From the NCBI GenBank assembly GCA_964226865.1, contig CAXQUZ010000757.1, positions 2,370 to 66,369 on the forward strand: a stretch of 64,000 nucleotides of DNA, read 5' to 3'. A program made the position numbers and the translations under genes. Each line of letters opens with the position of its first letter. The first letter of the stretch is position 1. The DNA comes from Myxococcota bacterium (GTDB lineage Bacteria > Myxococcota_A > UBA796 > UBA2385). This document shows positions 28,450 to 38,000 of this stretch, piece by piece. The notes beneath the pieces are model-generated. The model saw only the letters and a list, made by a program, of their open reading frames with translations. It made no database searches and was not told the DNA's origin.

Positions 28450-31400
28450 TCACGGCAGCACCAGCGGCGCGCTGGGGGCGCTGCGGCGGCCGGCGGGATC
28501 GACGGCCACCACCCTCCAGCGGGTGCCGGAGGGGGGCTGGCCGGGGCTGCGCCAGAAGGCGAGGCCCGTGGCGTCGATCACGCCCTCCGGGCCGGCACCC
28601 TCGGCGTCCAAGAGGGCCACCTGCTCGGCGGGCTGGCCCGGCAGCTGGCGCAGCACAGCGAAGCGGTAGACCCCCATGCTGCCGCCCCCGGGCAGGGCAC
28701 AGCGCCACGACAGCCGCACCCCGAGGGGCTGGGGCTGGACCGCGACCGGCACGGGCACGGGCGGCGGCCCGGGGGGCATCACCAGCGCCGCGGCGGGCCC
28801 GCTGGGGGGGCTCCAGGCCCCGGGCAGCAGCTCGGGGGTCTCGGGCAGCCGGTCGCCCGTGACCGGGTGGCGTGCGCCCGTGCCCGGCGCCGGGCCGGCC
28901 TGGACCTCGACCCGCCAGGCGTAGCGGGTCCAGGGCCGCAGTCCCGCACCGGGCACCCCGGGCAGGGCCCCGGTGTCGAAGATGTCGAACTCGGCGGGGC
29001 CCTCGGCCGGCAGCTCCGGCACGGAGCCCGTGGCCACGATGGGCATCTGGTCGGGGTCGAGGGCGCTGATGCGGCTGCGGCGGAGGCGCCAGCGCACCGG
29101 CGCGACGGCCCCGCGCACGGCCCGCACCCGCAGCCGCCAGGCCCCCGCCGGCCCCGCGGGCCCGGGGCTGCCGTCGGCGGCGGCGGGCAGCACGGGCGCG
29201 GCGGCCGGCGGCACCTCGAGCAGCGGCGGCGGCGGCGCCCCGATGGCCGGCACGGCAAAGGGGGCGACGCCCGAGGCCCCGAAGTCGGCGGCGACCCCCT
29301 GAAGACTCTCGGCGACGACCTTCACAAGGGTCAGGGTGCGCAGGGCGCCCGAGACCCGGTGGGCGAAGCGCAGCCGCCCCCCGACCGCCGCCAGGGGCCC
29401 AGCGCTCACGAGGCGGAACCAGGTCGGCGGGAAGCGGTGGCCGTGGTCGCGGCAGGCCTGGGCCCGGGCGAGCAGGTCGCGCCCGGCGGCGCTGTGGGCG
29501 GCCACGAAGGCGGCGAGGCCGGCGTCGCTGCCCGCGGCATCCGCGGCCATGGCCACCAGGCGGGTCTCGTCGGCGGCATAGACCCGGTAGCGCAGCCCCG
29601 CACCGCCCACCCCCACGTCGATGGGCAGCAGCGCCAGCCCGTGGGCGTCGGGGCGCTGGGTGTAGGCGAGGGTGATGGGGAGCACCACCGGCTCTGGCGG
29701 GCGCGGATCGACGAGCGCGACGGTCTTCTCGGTGGCGGGACCGAGGGTCGTGCGCACCGTGCGCCACCGGGCCTGGAGCACGACCTGGCCGGCGCCGCAG
29801 CGGGGCAGGGCGAGGCCGGGAATGGTGAACTCGAGGGTGTCCTGGGCGCCGTTGACCGGCACCTCCTGGTGGACCCCGTGGTCGCCGTCGAGCACGAGGT
29901 GGGCCAGGGCCTCGCTGCCGGGGGCGAGGCTGTCGGCCGGGGGCACGGGCACCCACACCCGGATGCTGCCCGCCAGCGGCCCGTCGGGCACGGGCTGGGG
30001 CACGGCCGGGGGCACCACCTCGGTCATGAGCTGGGGGGCCGGCGGCGGCGGCGGCGGCAGCGGGTCGGCGTGCACGGTCGCCACGTCGCTCCAGCGGCCG
30101 AACCAGTCGGTCTGGGCGAGCCGGTAGTCGAGGGGCCGGTTCGGGGCCGACCGGTCGCGGAGCAGCCCCTGGCCCGTCTGGCGCACGGCCGGGTCGCGCT
30201 CGGCGGTGAGGGCGAGGGCGCGGCCGCCCGGCGGGATGTGCGGCGGCCAGGGGGCCGCCTGGGGCAGCCGGTCGTTCAGCCCGTCCACGGCGCCCCCGTC
30301 CACCCGGGCCAGCATCATCATGCCGGTCGGGTTGCGCGCCGAGAGGGCGAGCTCGACCTCGCGCTCGGCCTGGTCGGCGGGCACCCCCGGGGGCGTGGCG
30401 AAGAAGGGCCGCAGCACGGCGGTGGCCGTGGGCGCCGGGGGCCGGTCGAAGGGCGCGCCGACGGTCACACAGGCCACACAGCGCACGGGCACGTGCTGGC
30501 GGCCGTCCACCGACACCGGCGGCAGGTCCCAGGCGCCGAGGGTCGCGCGGGCGTCGCTCTCGATGAGGTGGCGCTGGAGCAGGGCCGCAGCGGGGCCCAC
30601 GGCCGCCGGGTCGACGGCGAAGACCCCGTCGATGACGTAGGCGATGACGTCGCCCGGGTCGCCCCCGGGGGCCTCGTCCCGGTCGGCGAAGCCCAGCCAG
30701 CGGGCCTGGCCCGGGTCGATCATGGCCGCCATCACGACGCTCATGGCCGCGACCGAGGCCACCTCGTCCGTGGCGCCGCCGGTCTCGATGCCCGCGTACT
30801 CCTGGACGGCCTGCTCGGGCGGCAGGGGGCCGTCCAGCATGGTCTGGAGGGGCGGCAGCGTGGCGCCGAAGGTCATCAACACCCGCGCCAGCTCGTTGTT
30901 CTCGGTCGCCGGGTCGAGGTCGCTGAGGGCCTCGGCCGCGGGCTGGTCGTGGCGGCCCATGCGGGCGGGGGCCCCCCGGCGCACCCGGGCCTGGGCCTGG
31001 GCGCTGGCGTCGGCGGCCCCCCGGTAGCGCTGGGCACTGCGGATGGGCAGCCCCATCTCGCGCCACAGCTGGGTCTTCACGTCCCGCAGCACCTCGCGGG
31101 CCGAGATCCACTCGACCCCGTGCACCGTGCCCTTGCCCGTGATGCGCAGGGCGTGGAGCTGGCTGGCGGCCACGTCCCACGGGTCGCCGGACCGTGCGGC
31201 AACGACCTGCTCATCGCCATGTTCGTCGTAGACCAGCCCCTCGAGGCGCATGGCGAAGGTGAGGGTGCGGCCCCCGTCCGGCACGAGCACGTCGCCCGGA
31301 TCGAAGACCGTGCCCCCGCCCGGCACCCGCACATCGCCCGGGTCGAGAACCACGCCCCCGTCCGGCAGGCGCAGGTCGCCCGGCTCGAAGACCGTGCCCG

Positions 31401-32025
31401 GGCGCACCACCGTGCCCGGCGCGAGGACCACCGTGCCCGGCCGGACCACCCCGCCCAGGTCGCGGACCGTGCCCGGCTGGCGCACGCTGTCGGGGTCGAT
31501 GCTCAGCCCCCGTCCCGCCGGCGCGGGCGCCGCCACCACCGTGCCACCGGGCCGCAGGGCGCCGCGTCCCCGCAGCCGGCCGATGCTCTCGCGCACGCTG
31601 GCCACCGGGCCCGCCGCCGTGCGGCCCCGGCTGCGGCCCCGCGGCAGCCGCCCCCGCGGACCGGTCCGCCCCCCGCCCGTGCCCCCGATGGTGACCGTGT
31701 CGGGGCTGAGCTTGGCCCGGGCCCAGACCGCGGGGTGGCTGGCCTGGTCGGGGAAGGTCGCCGTGACCACGTCGCCCAGGCCGATCTGGAAGGGCGGCTG
31801 CAGCTGGGCACCGCGCTGGTCGCGGAAGATGACGTCCGTGCGCAGCTGGCCGCGCTCGGTCGCCCCGGGGCCCAGGTTCTGGCGGGTGATGCGGAAGGGC
31901 GCGACGGGCAGACCGAGGGCCGGCCCGGGCACCACCCGCAGGTGGACACCGTCGCGGAGGTGGGCATCGCCCGTCCCGTCGATGGCCTGGGCCACCAGGG
32001 CCCACGGGGGCGCGAGGAGGATCAT
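28450..32025 (-). CDS. Giant-operon gene 3: 1191-aa hypothetical protein (P-G-x-V micro-repeat, FN3-like C-terminus)
   Basis: ORF 28450..32334 trimmed to ATG 32025 (MILLAPPWALVAQ), which overlaps the stop of gene 2 in ATGA. About 10 tandem PGxVxx units. C-terminal LGVRLSWR...YRFAVLR...RWRVVAVDPAGRRS looks FN3-like. Confidence 0.8.
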   Translation of the reverse strand: MILLAPPWALVAQAIDGTGDAHLRDGVHLRVVPGPALGLPVAPFRITRQNLGPGATERGQLRTDVIFRDQRGAQLQPPFQIGLGDVVTATFPDQASHPAVWARAKLSPDTVTIGGTGGGRTGPRGRLPRGRSRGRTAAGPVASVRESIGRLRGRGALRPGGTVVAAPAPAGRGLSIDPDSVRQPGTVRDLGGVVRPGTVVLAPGTVVRPGTVFEPGDLRLPDGGVVLDPGDVRVPGGGTVFDPGDVLVPDGGRTLTFAMRLEGLVYDEHGDEQVVAARSGDPWDVAASQLHALRITGKGTVHGVEWISAREVLRDVKTQLWREMGLPIRSAQRYRGAADASAQAQARVRRGAPARMGRHDQPAAEALSDLDPATENNELARVLMTFGATLPPLQTMLDGPLPPEQAVQEYAGIETGGATDEVASVAAMSVVMAAMIDPGQARWLGFADRDEAPGGDPGDVIAYVIDGVFAVDPAAVGPAAALLQRHLIESDARATLGAWDLPPVSVDGRQHVPVRCVACVTVGAPFDRPPAPTATAVLRPFFATPPGVPADQAEREVELALSARNPTGMMMLARVDGGAVDGLNDRLPQAAPWPPHIPPGGRALALTAERDPAVRQTGQGLLRDRSAPNRPLDYRLAQTDWFGRWSDVATVHADPLPPPPPPAPQLMTEVVPPAVPQPVPDGPLAGSIRVWVPVPPADSLAPGSEALAHLVLDGDHGVHQEVPVNGAQDTLEFTIPGLALPRCGAGQVVLQARWRTVRTTLGPATEKTVALVDPRPPEPVVLPITLAYTQRPDAHGLALLPIDVGVGGAGLRYRVYAADETRLVAMAADAAGSDAGLAAFVAAHSAAGRDLLARAQACRDHGHRFPPTWFRLVSAGPLAAVGGRLRFAHRVSGALRTLTLVKVVAESLQGVAADFGASGVAPFAVPAIGAPPPPLLEVPPAAAPVLPAAADGSPGPAGPAGAWRLRVRAVRGAVAPVRWRLRRSRISALDPDQMPIVATGSVPELPAEGPAEFDIFDTGALPGVPGAGLRPWTRYAWRVEVQAGPAPGTGARHPVTGDRLPETPELLPGAWSPPSGPAAALVMPPGPPPVPVPVAVQPQPLGVRLSWRCALPGGGSMGVYRFAVLRQLPGQPAEQVALLDAEGAGPEGVIDATGLAFWRSPGQPPSGTRWRVVAVDPAGRRSAPSAPLVLP

Positions 32026-35000
32026 GCCAGCTCCTGGGAGATGATGTGGGGGATGGCCCCGATGGACCGGCGCAGGGTGAAGCCGCGGTCCGGAGCGACC
32101 GCGTCGATGGTGAGGACCAGGTCGGCGAGCGCGAGGCCCCCGCCCGGCACGAGAGGCGCGGCCGGCGCCAGCAGCACCCGGGTGCCGGCGACGTTGCTGC
32201 GCAGCACCCGCAGCCGCTCGGCGCCCACGGCCCCGCCGGTGATGTCGAGGCGGGGCACCGTGCCCGCGCCCTCGAGCCGCGGCGGCCGCAGCAGGGCCTC
32301 GTCGCTGTCGAGCAGCACCCCCACGATCGCCCACTGATCGGCCACCAGAGACCAGACCAGCACCGTGCGCGGGGCCCGGGGCAGGGGCAGCGGGTCGAGG
32401 CCCAGCTGGGCGAGGGCCGCGTCGAGGGCCGCGTCGTCGCCGAGGGGCGGGGCCGCCGCGCCGGTGAGGGCCACCGGCAGGGGGGCCGGGGCGATGCGCT
32501 CGACGGGAACACTCGTCCCCACGTCATTGTCGAGACCAAAGCCCAGCGCCTGGAGCAGCCCTTCGGGGCCCCGGTGGCGGCTCGTGCGGAAGTGCTGCAC
32601 GGCGATGATCGTGCCCTCGTCCCCCGGCAGGTTCGGGGAGACCGCCGCGACGATGAGGTCGTAGGCGGCGCCCGGGTCGAGGGTGGCCGAGATGCGCAGG
32701 GTCGTGCTGTGGGGCACAGCGTCGGCGGCGATGCAGGGGTTCTCGCGGATGGCGACGGTCAGCGCCGTCTCGCGGGCCGTGAGCACCGCATCGGGGCTGA
32801 TGCCGGCGGTGACCTGGACGGCCACATCCGGCGGGTGGGCCCGGCCGACGAGGCTGCCGGGGGCCGGGTCGGTGCGCCGGAGCCGCAGCTTCAAGCGCTT
32901 GCCATAGCGGGCCAGCAGCCCCTCGACGTGGAGCACGGAGAAGTGGACCAGCAGGGCATCGTCGAGGAAGTGGCGGAGCAGCGGGCCCGTCGGGTCGAAG
33001 CCCCGGAGGTAGCGGAGCAGGGCCGCGGGATCGAAGGCCTGCTGGGCGTCGTGGCGCAGCCGGTCGTCGATCGACAGCGCCCCGGCGGCCGCCGTGTCGA
33101 AGCGGAAGTCCTGGTGCGTGCCGGAGGCGGTCGACCAGTCGACGCTGTCGACGGGCGGCGGCTGGTCGTTGGCGTCGGCCGCCACCCAGGTGAGCCAGCG
33201 CCAGCGCACCCGCACGGTGTGGGGGGTGTTCGCCGCCATCAGCCAGCGCAGCCCGTCCGGGTCTGGCTGGCGCCCGCCCGGGGCGGCCTCGGCGGCCTCC
33301 TCGAAGACGTCCTCCAGCTCGTCGTGCAGCTCCTGGACCGAGGCGGCGGCGGCATCGGCCCCGGCGCTGATGCCACACAGGGCCAGCAGCGAGACCGTGA
33401 ACAGCGGCCAGCGCAGCACGATCAGCTTGTCGTGGACCGTGACCGTGTCGCCGGCGTCGGGCCGGTACTCGAGGTAGACCCCGAAGCGGCCGCTGTCTTC
33501 GGCGAAGTGGGCGAGGCAGCGGGCCTCGAGCTGGACCCAGCGCCCGGCGGTGGTGTGGGCCATGACCCGGGGGAACCAGCCCGAGGCGGCCAGGGTGGCG
33601 CCGGCGGTCTCGGCGAGGCCGCCGAGGGTGTCCTTGACGGCCACATCGGCGCAGACCTTGTGGATGCGCACGCGGCGGTCGGTGGCGTCGATCGACACCC
33701 ACCGGATGTCGTCTTCTTGGTGTTCGATGATGTGGACGACGTTCTCGTCCTTGTCGAGCTCGAGGCGGCGGGTGTGGAGCACGGCGTCGTGGGCGCCGTG
33801 GATGACCACCTCGACCGCGCGGCTGAAGCTGGGGCGGAGGTCGGTGTGGCTGAGCTCGAGGCGGATGCGCCGGGCGGGCCGGGGCATCTCGATGCGCATG
33901 CCCTTGGAGGTGGGGACCAGCACCGTGCCGCCCGCGGGGGGCAGCCCCGGGCCGAAGAAGATGTGGTCGCCGCGGTCGCGGAAGCGCAGCTCGTCCTCGA
34001 CCAGGGGCGAGACCTGGTTGCTCGTGGGGCTGTGGTCCGAGAAGTCGACGCAGTGCATGCGGTGGCTGGGCACGGCGGGGATCTGGCCGACCACGGCGAG
34101 GGTCAGGCGCAGGTCGCGCAGGGGGCTCACAAGGTTGACGGCGAGGTCGAGGCTGGCCACCAGCGCGCCGTCGGTGTGGAGCTGGGGGAGCTGCCAGCCC
34201 GCGGCGTGGACGTGGGGCAGGTCGGGGGGGGCGCTGTCGCCGACGGGGGCGACCCGGCCGGCCACCAGCCGCATGCCCGCGCTGGCGGCGAGGGCGCGGA
34301 CCTCGGAGATCGGCATGGGCAGCAGCGCCTCGGTGGCCACCGCGTCGATCTGGGAGTGGAGGGAGGAGCTCGGGGGCCCGGAGGCGAAGTGGACCTGGTC
34401 GCCCACGGGCCGGCCCTCGGCGCCGAGGGCACAGGCCGCCTTCGCGACGGGCGGGGTGTCGCAGAGGGTGGCCAGGGTGCCGCCGACCTCGCCGGGGATG
34501 TCGACCACGTCGTCGGCCAAGCCGGCCTGCCAGTGCTGGGGGCGCCAGTGGAAGAGCCCGAGCACGGCCCCCTCGTGGTCGCCCTCGGCCGTCTCGACCG
34601 CGGTGGCGCCCGGCCGGGGGTTCCACCGGGCGAGGTGTTCGCCACCGGCGATGGGCTGGCCCTGGCTGTCGAGCAGCTCGACGCTCTCGAGGCGGAAGAG
34701 GTGGCGCAGCTCGGAGGAGCCGACCCACCGGGCTCGGGGCGCGCCCGAGGGCAGCTGGATGCCGGGGCCGTGGCTGGCGACCACGACGGGGTGGGCGAGG
34801 TGGATCAGGGGGATGGTGTCGGGCCAGACCGTGGGCACGGGCCGGGGGGCCGCCACCCCCTGCTCGCTGGCCTCGGCCACGCTGCGGCCCCAGCCGTCGA
34901 GCAGGGCCAGCCGGTCGACCAGCGGATCGGGCGGCAGCACCGGGGGCTCGGGCTCTTCGCCGCCCCAGGTGAGGCCCACACAGGCGCTGACCGAGAAGAA

Positions 35001-38000
35001 GAAGAAGCTGACCCGGCCACAGAAGCGGGCCCGCAGGAACACATCCTCGTCGGTGATGATGGCCTGGATGGTGCCCGAGAGGCCGATGCTCACGATGAGC
35101 AGCCGCAGGGAGCCGGCCACGTGGATGGTGCCGGCGAGGGTGAAGGGACGGGTGCCGACGCCGGCGAGCACGGTGGCGCTGACGCCGAAGCCGAGGGCGG
35201 CGTTGCCCCAGTCGAGCTTGAAGCCCGCGCCGAAGCCCAGGGCGAAGCCGTTGAGGTCCATGCGGGCGGCGGCCCGGGGACGGTGGGGCCCGCCGAGGTC
35301 GTGCAGCTTGCGCTCTTCGACCATGAAGAAGGCCCAGCCGTCCACATCGAGCACCCCGGGCAGCAGGGTGAGCGAGACGGGGCTGTCGGGCCGGCCGTCA
35401 CCGCCGTCCGCGCCCACCCGCAGGTGGGCATCCCGGGGCACGCCGGGCATCGGGAAGTAGGCCGAGAAGGGCACGTCGACCCGCAGCAGGTTGGGCACCT
35501 CGAAGAGGCCCCGCACGGCGACCAGCACGTGCTCCGGGGTCACCTCGACCAGGCCCGTCAGCGCCCCGGAGGGCCCCGCCGTCTCGGTCACCGCCGCGGT
35601 GGGCTTCTGGAGCATCTTGGCGTCGATGCTGAGCAGCACGGCGGGCTGGGGGAAGGCCACGACCAGCATGCCGAGGGCGTGGAAGGTGAAGCCGCCGTCG
35701 GGGAGGGTGCCGACGACAACACCCAACCCGAGGGCATTCTGGTCGGCTTCGTAGCCGTACTTCTGGCCCACGGGGCGCTGGTGCCAGGCCAGCAGCCGCG
35801 CCGCCGGATCGCCCGGCCCGTCCTGGCCCGTGCGCACCCCGTTGCTCACGAAGCGGCCCTGGACCCCCGACAGCCCGAGGCCCGAGCTCGCCAGGGGGAT
35901 GGCCGAGCCGAAGACCACGCCGGCCTCGACATGGGTCATGCCCTGCTTCATCGAGAGGGCGGCGTTGGCGCGCACGTCGATGGGCAGGATCTCGAGGTCG
36001 ATGGCGGCGCTGAGCTCCTGGGCCCCGAGGGCGAGCTGGCCCGTGCCCCGGACCACCCCGGGCAGGTCGACCCGGGCGGCGAGACCGCGCACGGCCACGT
36101 CCACGTCGACCTGGTCGCCCCGGCGGGCGAGGGTGATGCGCACCGTGGCCTCGGTGACCTCGACCACGCCGAGGTCGAGGGTGAACTCGAGGTCGAGCTC
36201 GAACCAGACCGAGCCGGCGCCCATGCGCACGGCCGTCACGCCGAGCAGCCGGCCGAGGGCGTTGTCGAGCACCCACTGGCCCGGGTCTTCGATGGCGAAG
36301 TCGGCCTCGTCGTAGGAGAGCGACAGCTTCTCGAGGCCGGTCTGGGCGTCGTCCCAGGTGAGGCCGACGTTGCGGTAGCGCACCCGCACGGGCTTGTCGG
36401 TGCGCAGCCCGAGGGGGTTGTCGGCCTTGACGTGGAGGGCCACGCCGTAGTCGCAGCGGATGCGGCTGCGGAAGCCCTCGACCACGTCCAGATCGGGCTG
36501 GCGGTGTTCGATCTCGACCCGCTGGAGCACCACCTCGGCCTTGTCGGAGATGGCCGCGCCGATGGTGCCGGCGGCCGTCAGCGCGGCGATGCGCACGGCC
36601 GTGCTGTCGGGGGCGGCCGCCGAGATGCCGCCGAGCAGGGCCGGCCCGAAGGCCAGGGCCGTGCCGAGCACCACCCCGGCGGTGTCGGTGGCCGTGAACT
36701 TCGCGAGGCCGTCGGGGTCGCCCGGCCGGTCGACGGCGACGCTGAACAGGGTCTGGCCCGAGCGGGGGTCGTGGCTGAAGCGGCCGACGACCTGCCAGAC
36801 ATCGGGCACCCCGGGGGGGCTCTGGGGCACGACCGTGCCCGTGGCGCCCGGCACCGCGACGGGGGTGGCCTGCCAGGCGACCCGCAGCTCGCAGAAGGTG
36901 GGGGCCCAGTCGGCGGGCGCCACCACCCGGGGGCTGTCCCAGCGGACCTCGAGGGTCACGCGCCAGGGCAGGTCCGGGTCGCGGGGGGCCACGGGGGCCG
37001 CAGCCGGCGCGTCGGCCCCCGGGACGAGCACCCGCCGGCGGGTGGTGCGCGGCGGGGTCGGATCGGGCCGGGGGGTCGGCGGGGTCTGGGGCGGCACGAG
37101 GGCGTAGATGTCGGCGCTGCGGTGCTCCCAGCGGGCGGCGATGTCCTGGATCTTCTTGCCGTCGCGGACCCAGCGCGACAGGGCGCTGTAGCGGCCGAGG
37201 ATGGCCTGGTCGTCGACATCGAAGGCGGCGCCCTCGGTCCACGGGGCCCCGGCGGGCAGGGCGGCGCCGGCGGCCGCCTTGGCCGTGCCCTGGCGCCAGG
37301 TGGTCGTGGGCTCGTCCTCGCCCCGCCAGCGCAGCCGGTCGGCGGCGATGGCCCCGGCGCCCAGGGCCGGATCCAGCAGCAGCCGGGCGGTCTGGTGGGC
37401 CCGGTCGCGGCCGAGGCGGGTGTTGTGGGCGCGGCTGCCGATGTCGCAGGTGCGGCCGATGACGAGGAAGCGGGTGCCGGCGGGCAGGGCGCCGGCCCAG
37501 GCGCGCAGGGCCCGGGCGTGGGCGGCGATGTCGGTGCTGGCCTGGAAGGCCGCCGCGCCCGTCGCCGGGTCGGTGTAGGGGGCCGCCTCGGCGATGGGCC
37601 AGGGCTCGGCCGGGCCGAAGACCGTGCCGCCCGTGGCGGTGGCCTGGAGGATGGCCCGGCGGCCGCGCAGGTGGACCGCGTCGTACTGGTAGTGGACCCG
37701 CTGGTGCTGGACCCAGGTCACGGCCGGCGGGGTGGGCGCATCGGGGGCTGCGGGGGCGCCGAGGGCCACGGCCACCTCGGCCAAGACATCGACGGGAACG
37801 TTGACCGCATCGTTGTTCACGGTGGCCTTGGACCGGCCCGGGGCGCGACCGCCCGTGGCGTGCCAGCCCCCCAGCGCGAGGCTGTCGAGCACGGCCTCGA
37901 CCCCGACGGGGTTGCCGCTCGCGTCGGTCACACCGCCGGCCCCGCCGAGCAGCAGGGCGCCGGTGGCCAGCACCCGCAGCTCGACCCGGCGCCGGAGGCC

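Follow-up and report, generated by a model that had tools for sequence, protein, structure and literature searches.

The 64,000-nucleotide stretch of a Myxococcota contig analyzed here (hereafter, the window) contains a cassette of three minus-strand genes, denoted C, D and E, the first of which (P0001) encodes a protein of 2477 amino acids (aa) that starts MTARGGISLLDLIADL and has an OmpA-like domain buried far from either end (Table 1). Because the guanine-plus-cytosine (GC) content of the window is 72-80%, long open reading frames (ORFs) are found in many frames. The GC content at the three codon positions of gene C (0.774/0.529/0.967, the last value being GC3) follows the pattern of a real high-GC gene; an overlapping plus-strand ORF of 3185 aa lacks such a pattern. 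Given that there is space for only 7 codons between the ATG of gene C and the stop upstream of it, and that the N-terminus (M..RGISLLDL) is kept in the relatives, the assigned start is right and there is no hidden leader. A first-pass annotation of the window had called attention to a peptide at 37300-37490 with a core motif of the OmpA_C, MotB and Pal type, said to lie inside a protein without a signal or transmembrane anchor and to be followed by about 1800 residues. This description holds: the peptide (with one extra leading R) is encoded in gene C as residues 662-716, 1761 further residues follow, and neither a lipobox nor a convincing or conserved membrane helix is found in the protein. 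Likewise, not one signal-like N-terminus was found among 69 C, 60 D and 51 E proteins, all these calls resting on simple hydropathy and not on a trained predictor.

Is the OmpA-like motif what it appears to be? Comparisons that involve gene C alone yield only marginal scores. The Pfam profile PF00691, which the first-pass annotation had proposed for checking the motif, scores the full protein at 15.6 bits (E = 0.021) and the excised residues 630-800 at 21.0 bits (E = 4e-4), in both cases below the gathering cut-off of 27.2 bits; phmmer comparison with the OmpA of K. pneumoniae gives E = 0.013, and the NCBIfam model NF053611 (YiaD family) gives 14.9 bits (E = 0.016), far under its own cut-off. 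It is the family-level profiles that make the identification decisive. A first search retrieved 37 full-length homologs of 2350-2900 aa, one of which, in Methylibium, is named 'OmpA family protein'. The profile of the relatives' residues 630-800 matches the solved domains of OmpA, OprF and Pal at E = 1.6e-9, with 2mqe, 5u1h and 3nb3 reached at E values from 1.6e-9 to 8e-9. When the profile of the whole protein family (2400 aa) was compared with the PDB, the best scorers were all OmpA-like, save for 7f4v, a weak match from outside the family (E = 0.0024), and 18 of 24 individual relatives match PF00691 at E<=0.1 (the best at 1.6e-6). When 1.84 billion representative proteins were searched with the family profile, the giants were retrieved, in every case with the domain near residues 600-800, followed by ordinary OmpA-like proteins of 200-800 aa at E values between 1e-10 and 1e-20.

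Structure prediction leads to the same conclusion. In a first model, which covered residues 630-800 (predicted local distance difference test score, pLDDT, 75), all 50 best PDB matches obtained with Foldseek are OmpA-like; the fold matches of the two models include TagL, PorE and proteins of the DotH complex. The second model, produced with AlphaFold for residues 1-830 from 70 sequences (pLDDT 81.6; predicted template-modeling score, pTM, 0.71), displays the complete beta-alpha-beta-alpha-beta-alpha-beta order, with strands at 584-589, 662-667, 708-712 and 780-786 and helices at 643-655, 675-694 and 773-778, in agreement with the OmpA-like topology that had been anticipated from the motif. The matches of this model include the Salmonella OmpA (4rha_B, template-modeling (TM) score 0.64) and PorE (6top_A, 0.54), both with a Foldseek probability of 1.0. 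The first strand, RVHYQY in gene C and RHVQVLMDFD in the family consensus, is the counterpart of the LFDFD strand. Of the two family-specific insertions, the first includes a stretch of low pLDDT at 615-624 and shows a conservation of 0.17 over residues 601-650. The domain shares with the PF00691 domains of OmpA, OprF, Pal, MotB, RmpM, PorE and TagL the fold order, the LFDFD-like strand 1, the loop G-x-T/C-x-x-x-G, the N..L..R-A and G-E signatures, the RRVEI-like last strand and the ligand Arg. It differs from them in its internal location, in the lack of a signal peptide, lipobox or membrane anchor, in the two insertions, in the Cys that occupies the place of the canonical Asp with an invariant Asp one position later, and in the score that stays below the gathering cut-off. 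Taken together, residues ~583-790 of gene C very probably represent a genuine, divergent OmpA-like (PF00691-type) domain, which is the only recognizable part of the cassette.

Table 1. The C-D-E cassette, the parts of the gene C protein (gene C residue numbers) and the adjoining genes, in window coordinates
Feature	Position	Strand	Basis or remark
Gene C: leaderless giant, 2477 aa, first gene of the C-D-E cassette	32022..39455	-	ORF, translation, GC3, homologs
Gene D: 1191 aa; start overlaps the gene C stop (ATGA)	28450..32025	-	in every locus with room for it
Gene E: 1136 aa, third cassette gene	25005..28415	-	missing from one alphaproteobacterial/Psychrobacter clade
N-terminal all-beta array, tandem Ig/FN3-like sandwiches, residues 1-580	37716..39455	-	AlphaFold model, Foldseek
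Complete OmpA-like domain with two family-specific insertions, residues 583-790	37086..37709	-	profiles, model, Foldseek
Insertion 1, residues 596-642, strand 1 to helix 1: small beta-hairpin and disordered, poorly conserved loop	37530..37670	-	model, conservation
Canonical core, residues 662-716: strand 2, binding loop, helix 2, strand 3	37308..37472	-	translation, profile alignments
Binding loop G667-R-T-C670-D671 (GRTCD)	37443..37457	-	translation; alignments to 2mqe, 5u1h, 5nhx
Arg685, equivalent of the Arg that binds the diaminopimelate carboxylate	37401..37403	-	aligned to R of LSE(R/K)RA in solved OmpA domains
Insertion 2, residues 717-772, strand 3 to helix 3: ~55 aa, two short helices, moderate confidence	37140..37307	-	model
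Helix 3 and last strand, residues 773-786: EHRSADIYAL; family YRRVDIYAVG, counterpart of NRRVEI	37098..37139	-	alignment, model
Beta-rich Gly/hydrophobic core, DUF6603-homologous, residues 888-1685	34401..36794	-	BLASTP, conservation
Conserved hydrophobic helix-loop-helix (LAxALAxGPALLxG ... VRIxALxAA), residues 926-965	36561..36680	-	hydropathy peak 1.78; kept across 64 members
Gene B: 604-659 aa, 21 nt upstream of gene C	39477-41291/41456	-	ORF
Gene F: SGNH/GDSL-like hydrolase, 99 nt downstream of gene E	23763-24905	-	weak Pfam match, E 8e-6, below cut-off
SulP/STAS transporter gene	41503-43275	-	same strand as the cassette

The residues of the binding site show both conservation and an unusual change of register. 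In the OmpA of A. baumannii, Arg286 and Asp271 bind diaminopimelate (DAP) (PMC5974059), and the first-pass annotation had held that both of the peptidoglycan-contacting residues are present in the motif. For the Arg, this is the case: Arg685 of gene C is canonical and does not vary in any of the 70 family members drawn from genome assemblies, and the same holds for G667, D671, L681, E713, R775 and R779, with N678 kept in 68. The Asp is a different matter. In the alignments to solved OmpA domains, the canonical Asp of the G-x-T-D signature (Asp271 in A. baumannii) pairs with Cys670, and the invariant Asp671 lies one residue past that site, at a position that is variable in ordinary OmpA proteins. 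Among 151 ordinary OmpA-like proteins recovered in the same search, 126 have D at the canonical position, and the next position varies between D, S, N and A. Within the giant family, position 670 is occupied by D in 38 of 70 members and by C in the other 32; C is found in 19 of 20 members from Actinomycetota and D in 37 of 50 from the remaining hosts, and the state changes several times along the family tree. The loop conforms to the pattern G-R-[C/T]-[C/D]-D and includes at least one Cys, at 669 or 670, in 59/70 members; in the Halomonas and Pelomonas copies, for instance, it reads GRCDD. Judged by these alignments, the fixed acid of the family is shifted by one residue relative to the canonical Asp, and classical DAP binding by the gene C domain appears plausible.

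For the all-beta array of immunoglobulin (Ig)- and fibronectin type III (FN3)-like sandwiches that precedes the domain (residues 1-580), Foldseek returns generic matches throughout: the Ig domains of MDGA1, the FN3 modules of CbhA, the Aureispira grappling-hook protein GhpA, SiiE, S-layer proteins and the decoration protein of phage N4; against viral models, residues 1-830 retrieve only generic Ig-like tail and fiber proteins. The best-conserved part of the protein is the core at residues 888-1685, with a column identity of 0.55-0.71. The same region aligns by BLASTP (E = 6e-51) with an Arthrobacter protein, P0035, of which residues 933-1157 match PF20248 (DUF6603, a family of large uncharacterized bacterial proteins) at 30 bits, over a cut-off of 27, and a more distant relative, P0037, combines DUF6603 at 43 bits with a weak OmpA match at residues 562-646. 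Gene C itself differs from the carriers of this family in having no direct match to PF20248, even at E<=10, and the link adds no mechanism; a literature search on DUF6603, PF20248 and giant leaderless OmpA proteins yielded nothing relevant. Within the core, the conserved hydrophobic hairpin at residues 926-965 would be either buried or membrane-inserting, as far as can be gauged from its sequence. We also observed that Cys residues at positions 1665, 1935 and 2241 are invariant and one at 1802 nearly so; they are far apart, in the C-terminal half of the protein, and could form a metal site or disulfides.

What travels with gene C was determined from a set of 124 loci, confirmed matches in assemblies that represent one genome per species, of which 80 were compared, following the contigs of two relatives. 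The order C, D, E is kept on both of these contigs and in essentially all 80 loci. Gene D accompanies gene C without exception wherever the locus has room for it, in one actinomycete lineage in the form of two overlapping ORFs of 525 and 575 aa (L001/L013, 17167-20452). Gene E is missing downstream of D, even by hidden Markov model (HMM) search, in six loci (L050, L051, L052, L059, L065 and L068), and the clade that lacks it consists of cassettes from Paracoccus, Rhodobacterales, Sabulicella, Sphingomonas and Psychrobacter. Since this clade retains C and D, the C-D pair is the minimal unit. The translational coupling of C and D, together with their strict co-occurrence, indicates that C, D and E probably form one complex. 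The sequences and profiles of the D and E families showed nothing significant in Pfam, NCBIfam, PADLOC, PHROGs or the PDB, apart from weak FN3 hints for D, and searches of PADLOC, PHROGs and NCBIfam with the products of genes B, C, D, E and F produced no match other than that of C to NF053611. A PLD-like C-terminus of gene E, which had been perceived by eye (25005-25800; consensus LHLASTxVVVDD...GxTHLWRRG), has no PDB or Pfam match with the E-family profiles and is therefore not supported at the sequence level.

All-against-all clustering of 738 flank genes revealed no conserved neighbor besides the cassette genes themselves, and a Pfam tally of the 144 nearest neighbors is made up of ordinary metabolism (oxidoreductases, methyltransferases and similar enzymes), with no prominence of integrase or defense families. 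Gene F was rejected as a cassette member, given that it never accompanies the cassette in the other loci. Gene B has no family match and lies beside the cassette in 0 of 80 related loci; it is specific to the source genome and outside the cassette. A weak terminator-like hairpin at 41423-41441 on the minus strand directly follows the SulP/STAS gene, which suggests that gene B starts at 41291 instead of 41456 and that a new transcript begins there.

The hosts of the cassette belong to at least nine phyla and include many Actinomycetota as well as Chloroflexota, Gemmatimonadota, Acidobacteriota, Bacteroidota, Myxococcota and Alpha-, Beta- and Gammaproteobacteria, that is, both single-membraned bacteria (Actinomycetota) and double-membraned ones. 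Cultured carriers include Halomonas halmophila NBRC 15537, Pelomonas sp. Root405, Sphingomonas yantingensis, Nannocystis punicea and Planotetraspora. The source genome, a metagenome-assembled genome (MAG) of 7.5 Mb with a single copy of the cassette, encodes five Omp85-family genes and hence comes from a double-membraned host; it belongs to the same family as the Myxococcota MAG of locus L009. Among its closer relatives, the cassette was found in at least three of 21 genomes of the same family; it was found neither in the one genome of the same genus that was searched nor in any of 19 genomes of the same order (0/19), under a stricter filter that makes these counts a floor. The tree of gene C contains sister pairs that cross phylum boundaries, namely Cytophagia with Anaerolineales, Acidimicrobiia with Pseudomonadota, Anaeromyxobacter with Sphingomonadales, and Gemmatimonadales with Rubrivivax (L004 vs L080, L027 vs L028, L012 vs L078 and L040 vs L079), and Nannocystis carries two different types of the cassette. 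These pairs suggest either that the cassette was recently transferred horizontally as a whole or that some MAGs contain binning errors, which may have entered the taxonomy labels. The patchy presence and the cross-phylum pairs imply that the cassette is accessory and horizontally mobile. Two of the carriers, Ornithinimicrobium and Serinicoccus, have ornithine rather than DAP as their wall diamino acid (PMC6113628, PMC9973731). In the cassettes of both genera, D671 and R685 are still kept, which is suggestive of a target that is not simply the DAP-type wall of the producer.

So what could a giant protein without a leader do with a wall-binding domain? Wall-binding modules are known from phage-tail, tailocin and Tc-type particles, which are likewise leaderless. 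Arguing from this analogy, the scenario that we tentatively favor, at a probability that approaches an even chance without reaching it, is that of a complex built in the cytoplasm which docks on a cell wall after release or upon penetration of an envelope. Under this scenario, the C, D and E proteins, being devoid of leaders, would fold and assemble in the cytoplasm as one large complex, which would reach peptidoglycan only upon leaving the cytoplasm, by lysis or an unknown exit route, or upon landing on another cell. The array of beta-sandwiches would then bind surface structures, the OmpA-like domain would dock non-covalently on the stem peptide of the wall via R685 and D671, and the hydrophobic core would act on the membrane. 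We favor this reading because proteins that combine Ig-like arrays with wall-binding modules and have no leader are elsewhere characteristic of particles that are put together in the cytoplasm and used externally; in particular, Ig-like arrays in leaderless proteins are, by analogy, suggestive of phage virion and surface-binding proteins. The occurrence of the cassette in ornithine-wall hosts is a second reason. The likeness to Tc (ABC) toxins, tailocins and contractile injection systems extends to the several very large, leaderless, co-transcribed subunits and the mobile, self-contained locus. The surface- and wall-binding modules of those particles act only outside the cytoplasm of the producer, and the comparison is to be taken as an analogy only. 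The cassette differs from these systems in that VRP1, SpvB, RHS, sheath, tube and baseplate domains were not detected in C, D, E or their families (Pfam, NCBIfam, PDB) and in that lysis or export genes are not linked to it.

Several observations count against a released complex. No fold or sequence link of C, D or E to a known injection or toxin machine emerged from Pfam, NCBIfam, PHROGs, PADLOC or the PDB, and no gene for secretion or export, lysis or holin is linked to the cassette among the 738 flank genes or in the Pfam tally of the 144 nearest neighbors. The replacement of the canonical Asp by Cys, in gene C and in the 32 relatives, means that classical DAP binding is not assured, and the presence of Cys in the binding loop would be in keeping with a reducing, that is, cytoplasmic setting.

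The last of these points leads to the alternative that the complex never leaves the cytoplasm, which would amount to a non-canonical use of the fold. The OmpA-like domain could bind wall precursors or recycled muropeptides (UDP-MurNAc-peptides, anhydro-muropeptides) and report wall damage or phage attack, the cassette thus being a defense or stress system. The absence of leaders from all three proteins, the retention of the Arg next to a re-registered acid and the Cys at 669/670 in most of the family would all suit such a sensor in a reducing compartment, and the giant size, the self-containment and the patchy horizontal distribution resemble those of defense systems. However, there is no PADLOC match, the flanks of the cassette are not defense islands, and the Ig-like arrays and the hydrophobic core are better explained by a role at a surface or membrane; we know of no cytoplasmic OmpA-like ligand sensor. 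On balance, we deem the sensor unlikely.

Another possibility is a resident envelope machine. OmpA-like domains normally serve as stators or anchors of envelope machines, and gene C might insert itself into, or cross, the producer's own cytoplasmic membrane by an unrecognized route, perhaps with the help of the hydrophobic hairpin and the core, and anchor to the producer's own peptidoglycan in the manner of MotB, TssL/TagL or ZorB. The occurrence of TagL, PorE and DotH-complex proteins among the fold matches and the conservation of the hairpin at residues 926-965 are compatible with this proposal, and the MotB, ZorB and TssL-TagL anchors resemble gene C in that their OmpA-like domain is part of a large multi-protein assembly. 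Those anchors, however, possess an N-terminal membrane helix of their own that places the domain in the periplasm, whereas in gene C the domain is preceded by ~580 folded, soluble residues without a hydrophobic N-terminal segment, all of which would need to be moved across the membrane in the absence of a signal. Moreover, the low-GC relatives of gene C have no 19-residue window above a hydropathy of 1.7, and the cassette is present in single- and double-membraned hosts alike, without partner genes. The presence of the cassette in hosts with ornithine walls speaks against its simply being anchored to a DAP-type wall of the producer itself. A machine of this kind therefore appears quite improbable.

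We give similarly little credence to a structural relic, in which the fold would be kept as a scaffold or a protein-protein contact within the giant complex, wall binding having been lost. The loss of the canonical Asp in gene C, the two large insertions and the score under the Pfam cut-off are what would be expected of such a relic. Against this stands the invariance, in 70 members from at least nine phyla, of the seven signature positions, among them the ligand Arg and those of the GE motif and the RRV strand, while the flanking loops drift. Such a pattern is more in line with a binding site that has been maintained than with a simple scaffold. Finally, the idea that a short motif in a high-GC, Ala/Arg-rich protein resembles the OmpA core by chance, for which only the marginal single-sequence scores (E = 0.013-0.021) could speak, is effectively refuted by the profile and fold matches and by the retention of the motif in low-GC relatives.

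The present analysis adds a fold model of the full domain, the one-residue shift of the acid together with the split of the family into clades with C or D at position 670, the recognition of the N-terminal 580 residues as Ig-like, the tally of neighbors and the carriage by ornithine-wall hosts. A more far-reaching proposal, which we consider possible yet rather doubtful, is that C-D(-E) represents a new class of giant complex that is assembled in the cytoplasm, has spread horizontally over at least nine phyla, exits without a known secretion signal and acts on envelopes, the re-registered (Cys/Asp-Asp) loop recognizing stem peptides beyond meso-DAP or soluble muropeptides. The cassette is widespread, with 11-15 kb of coding sequence per copy in the 124 loci, and the OmpA-like domain, as the only part with known and experimentally tractable biochemistry, is the practical entry point to it. 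The known roles of this very common fold would be widened by an OmpA-like domain that is internal to a leaderless protein and has its acid shifted.

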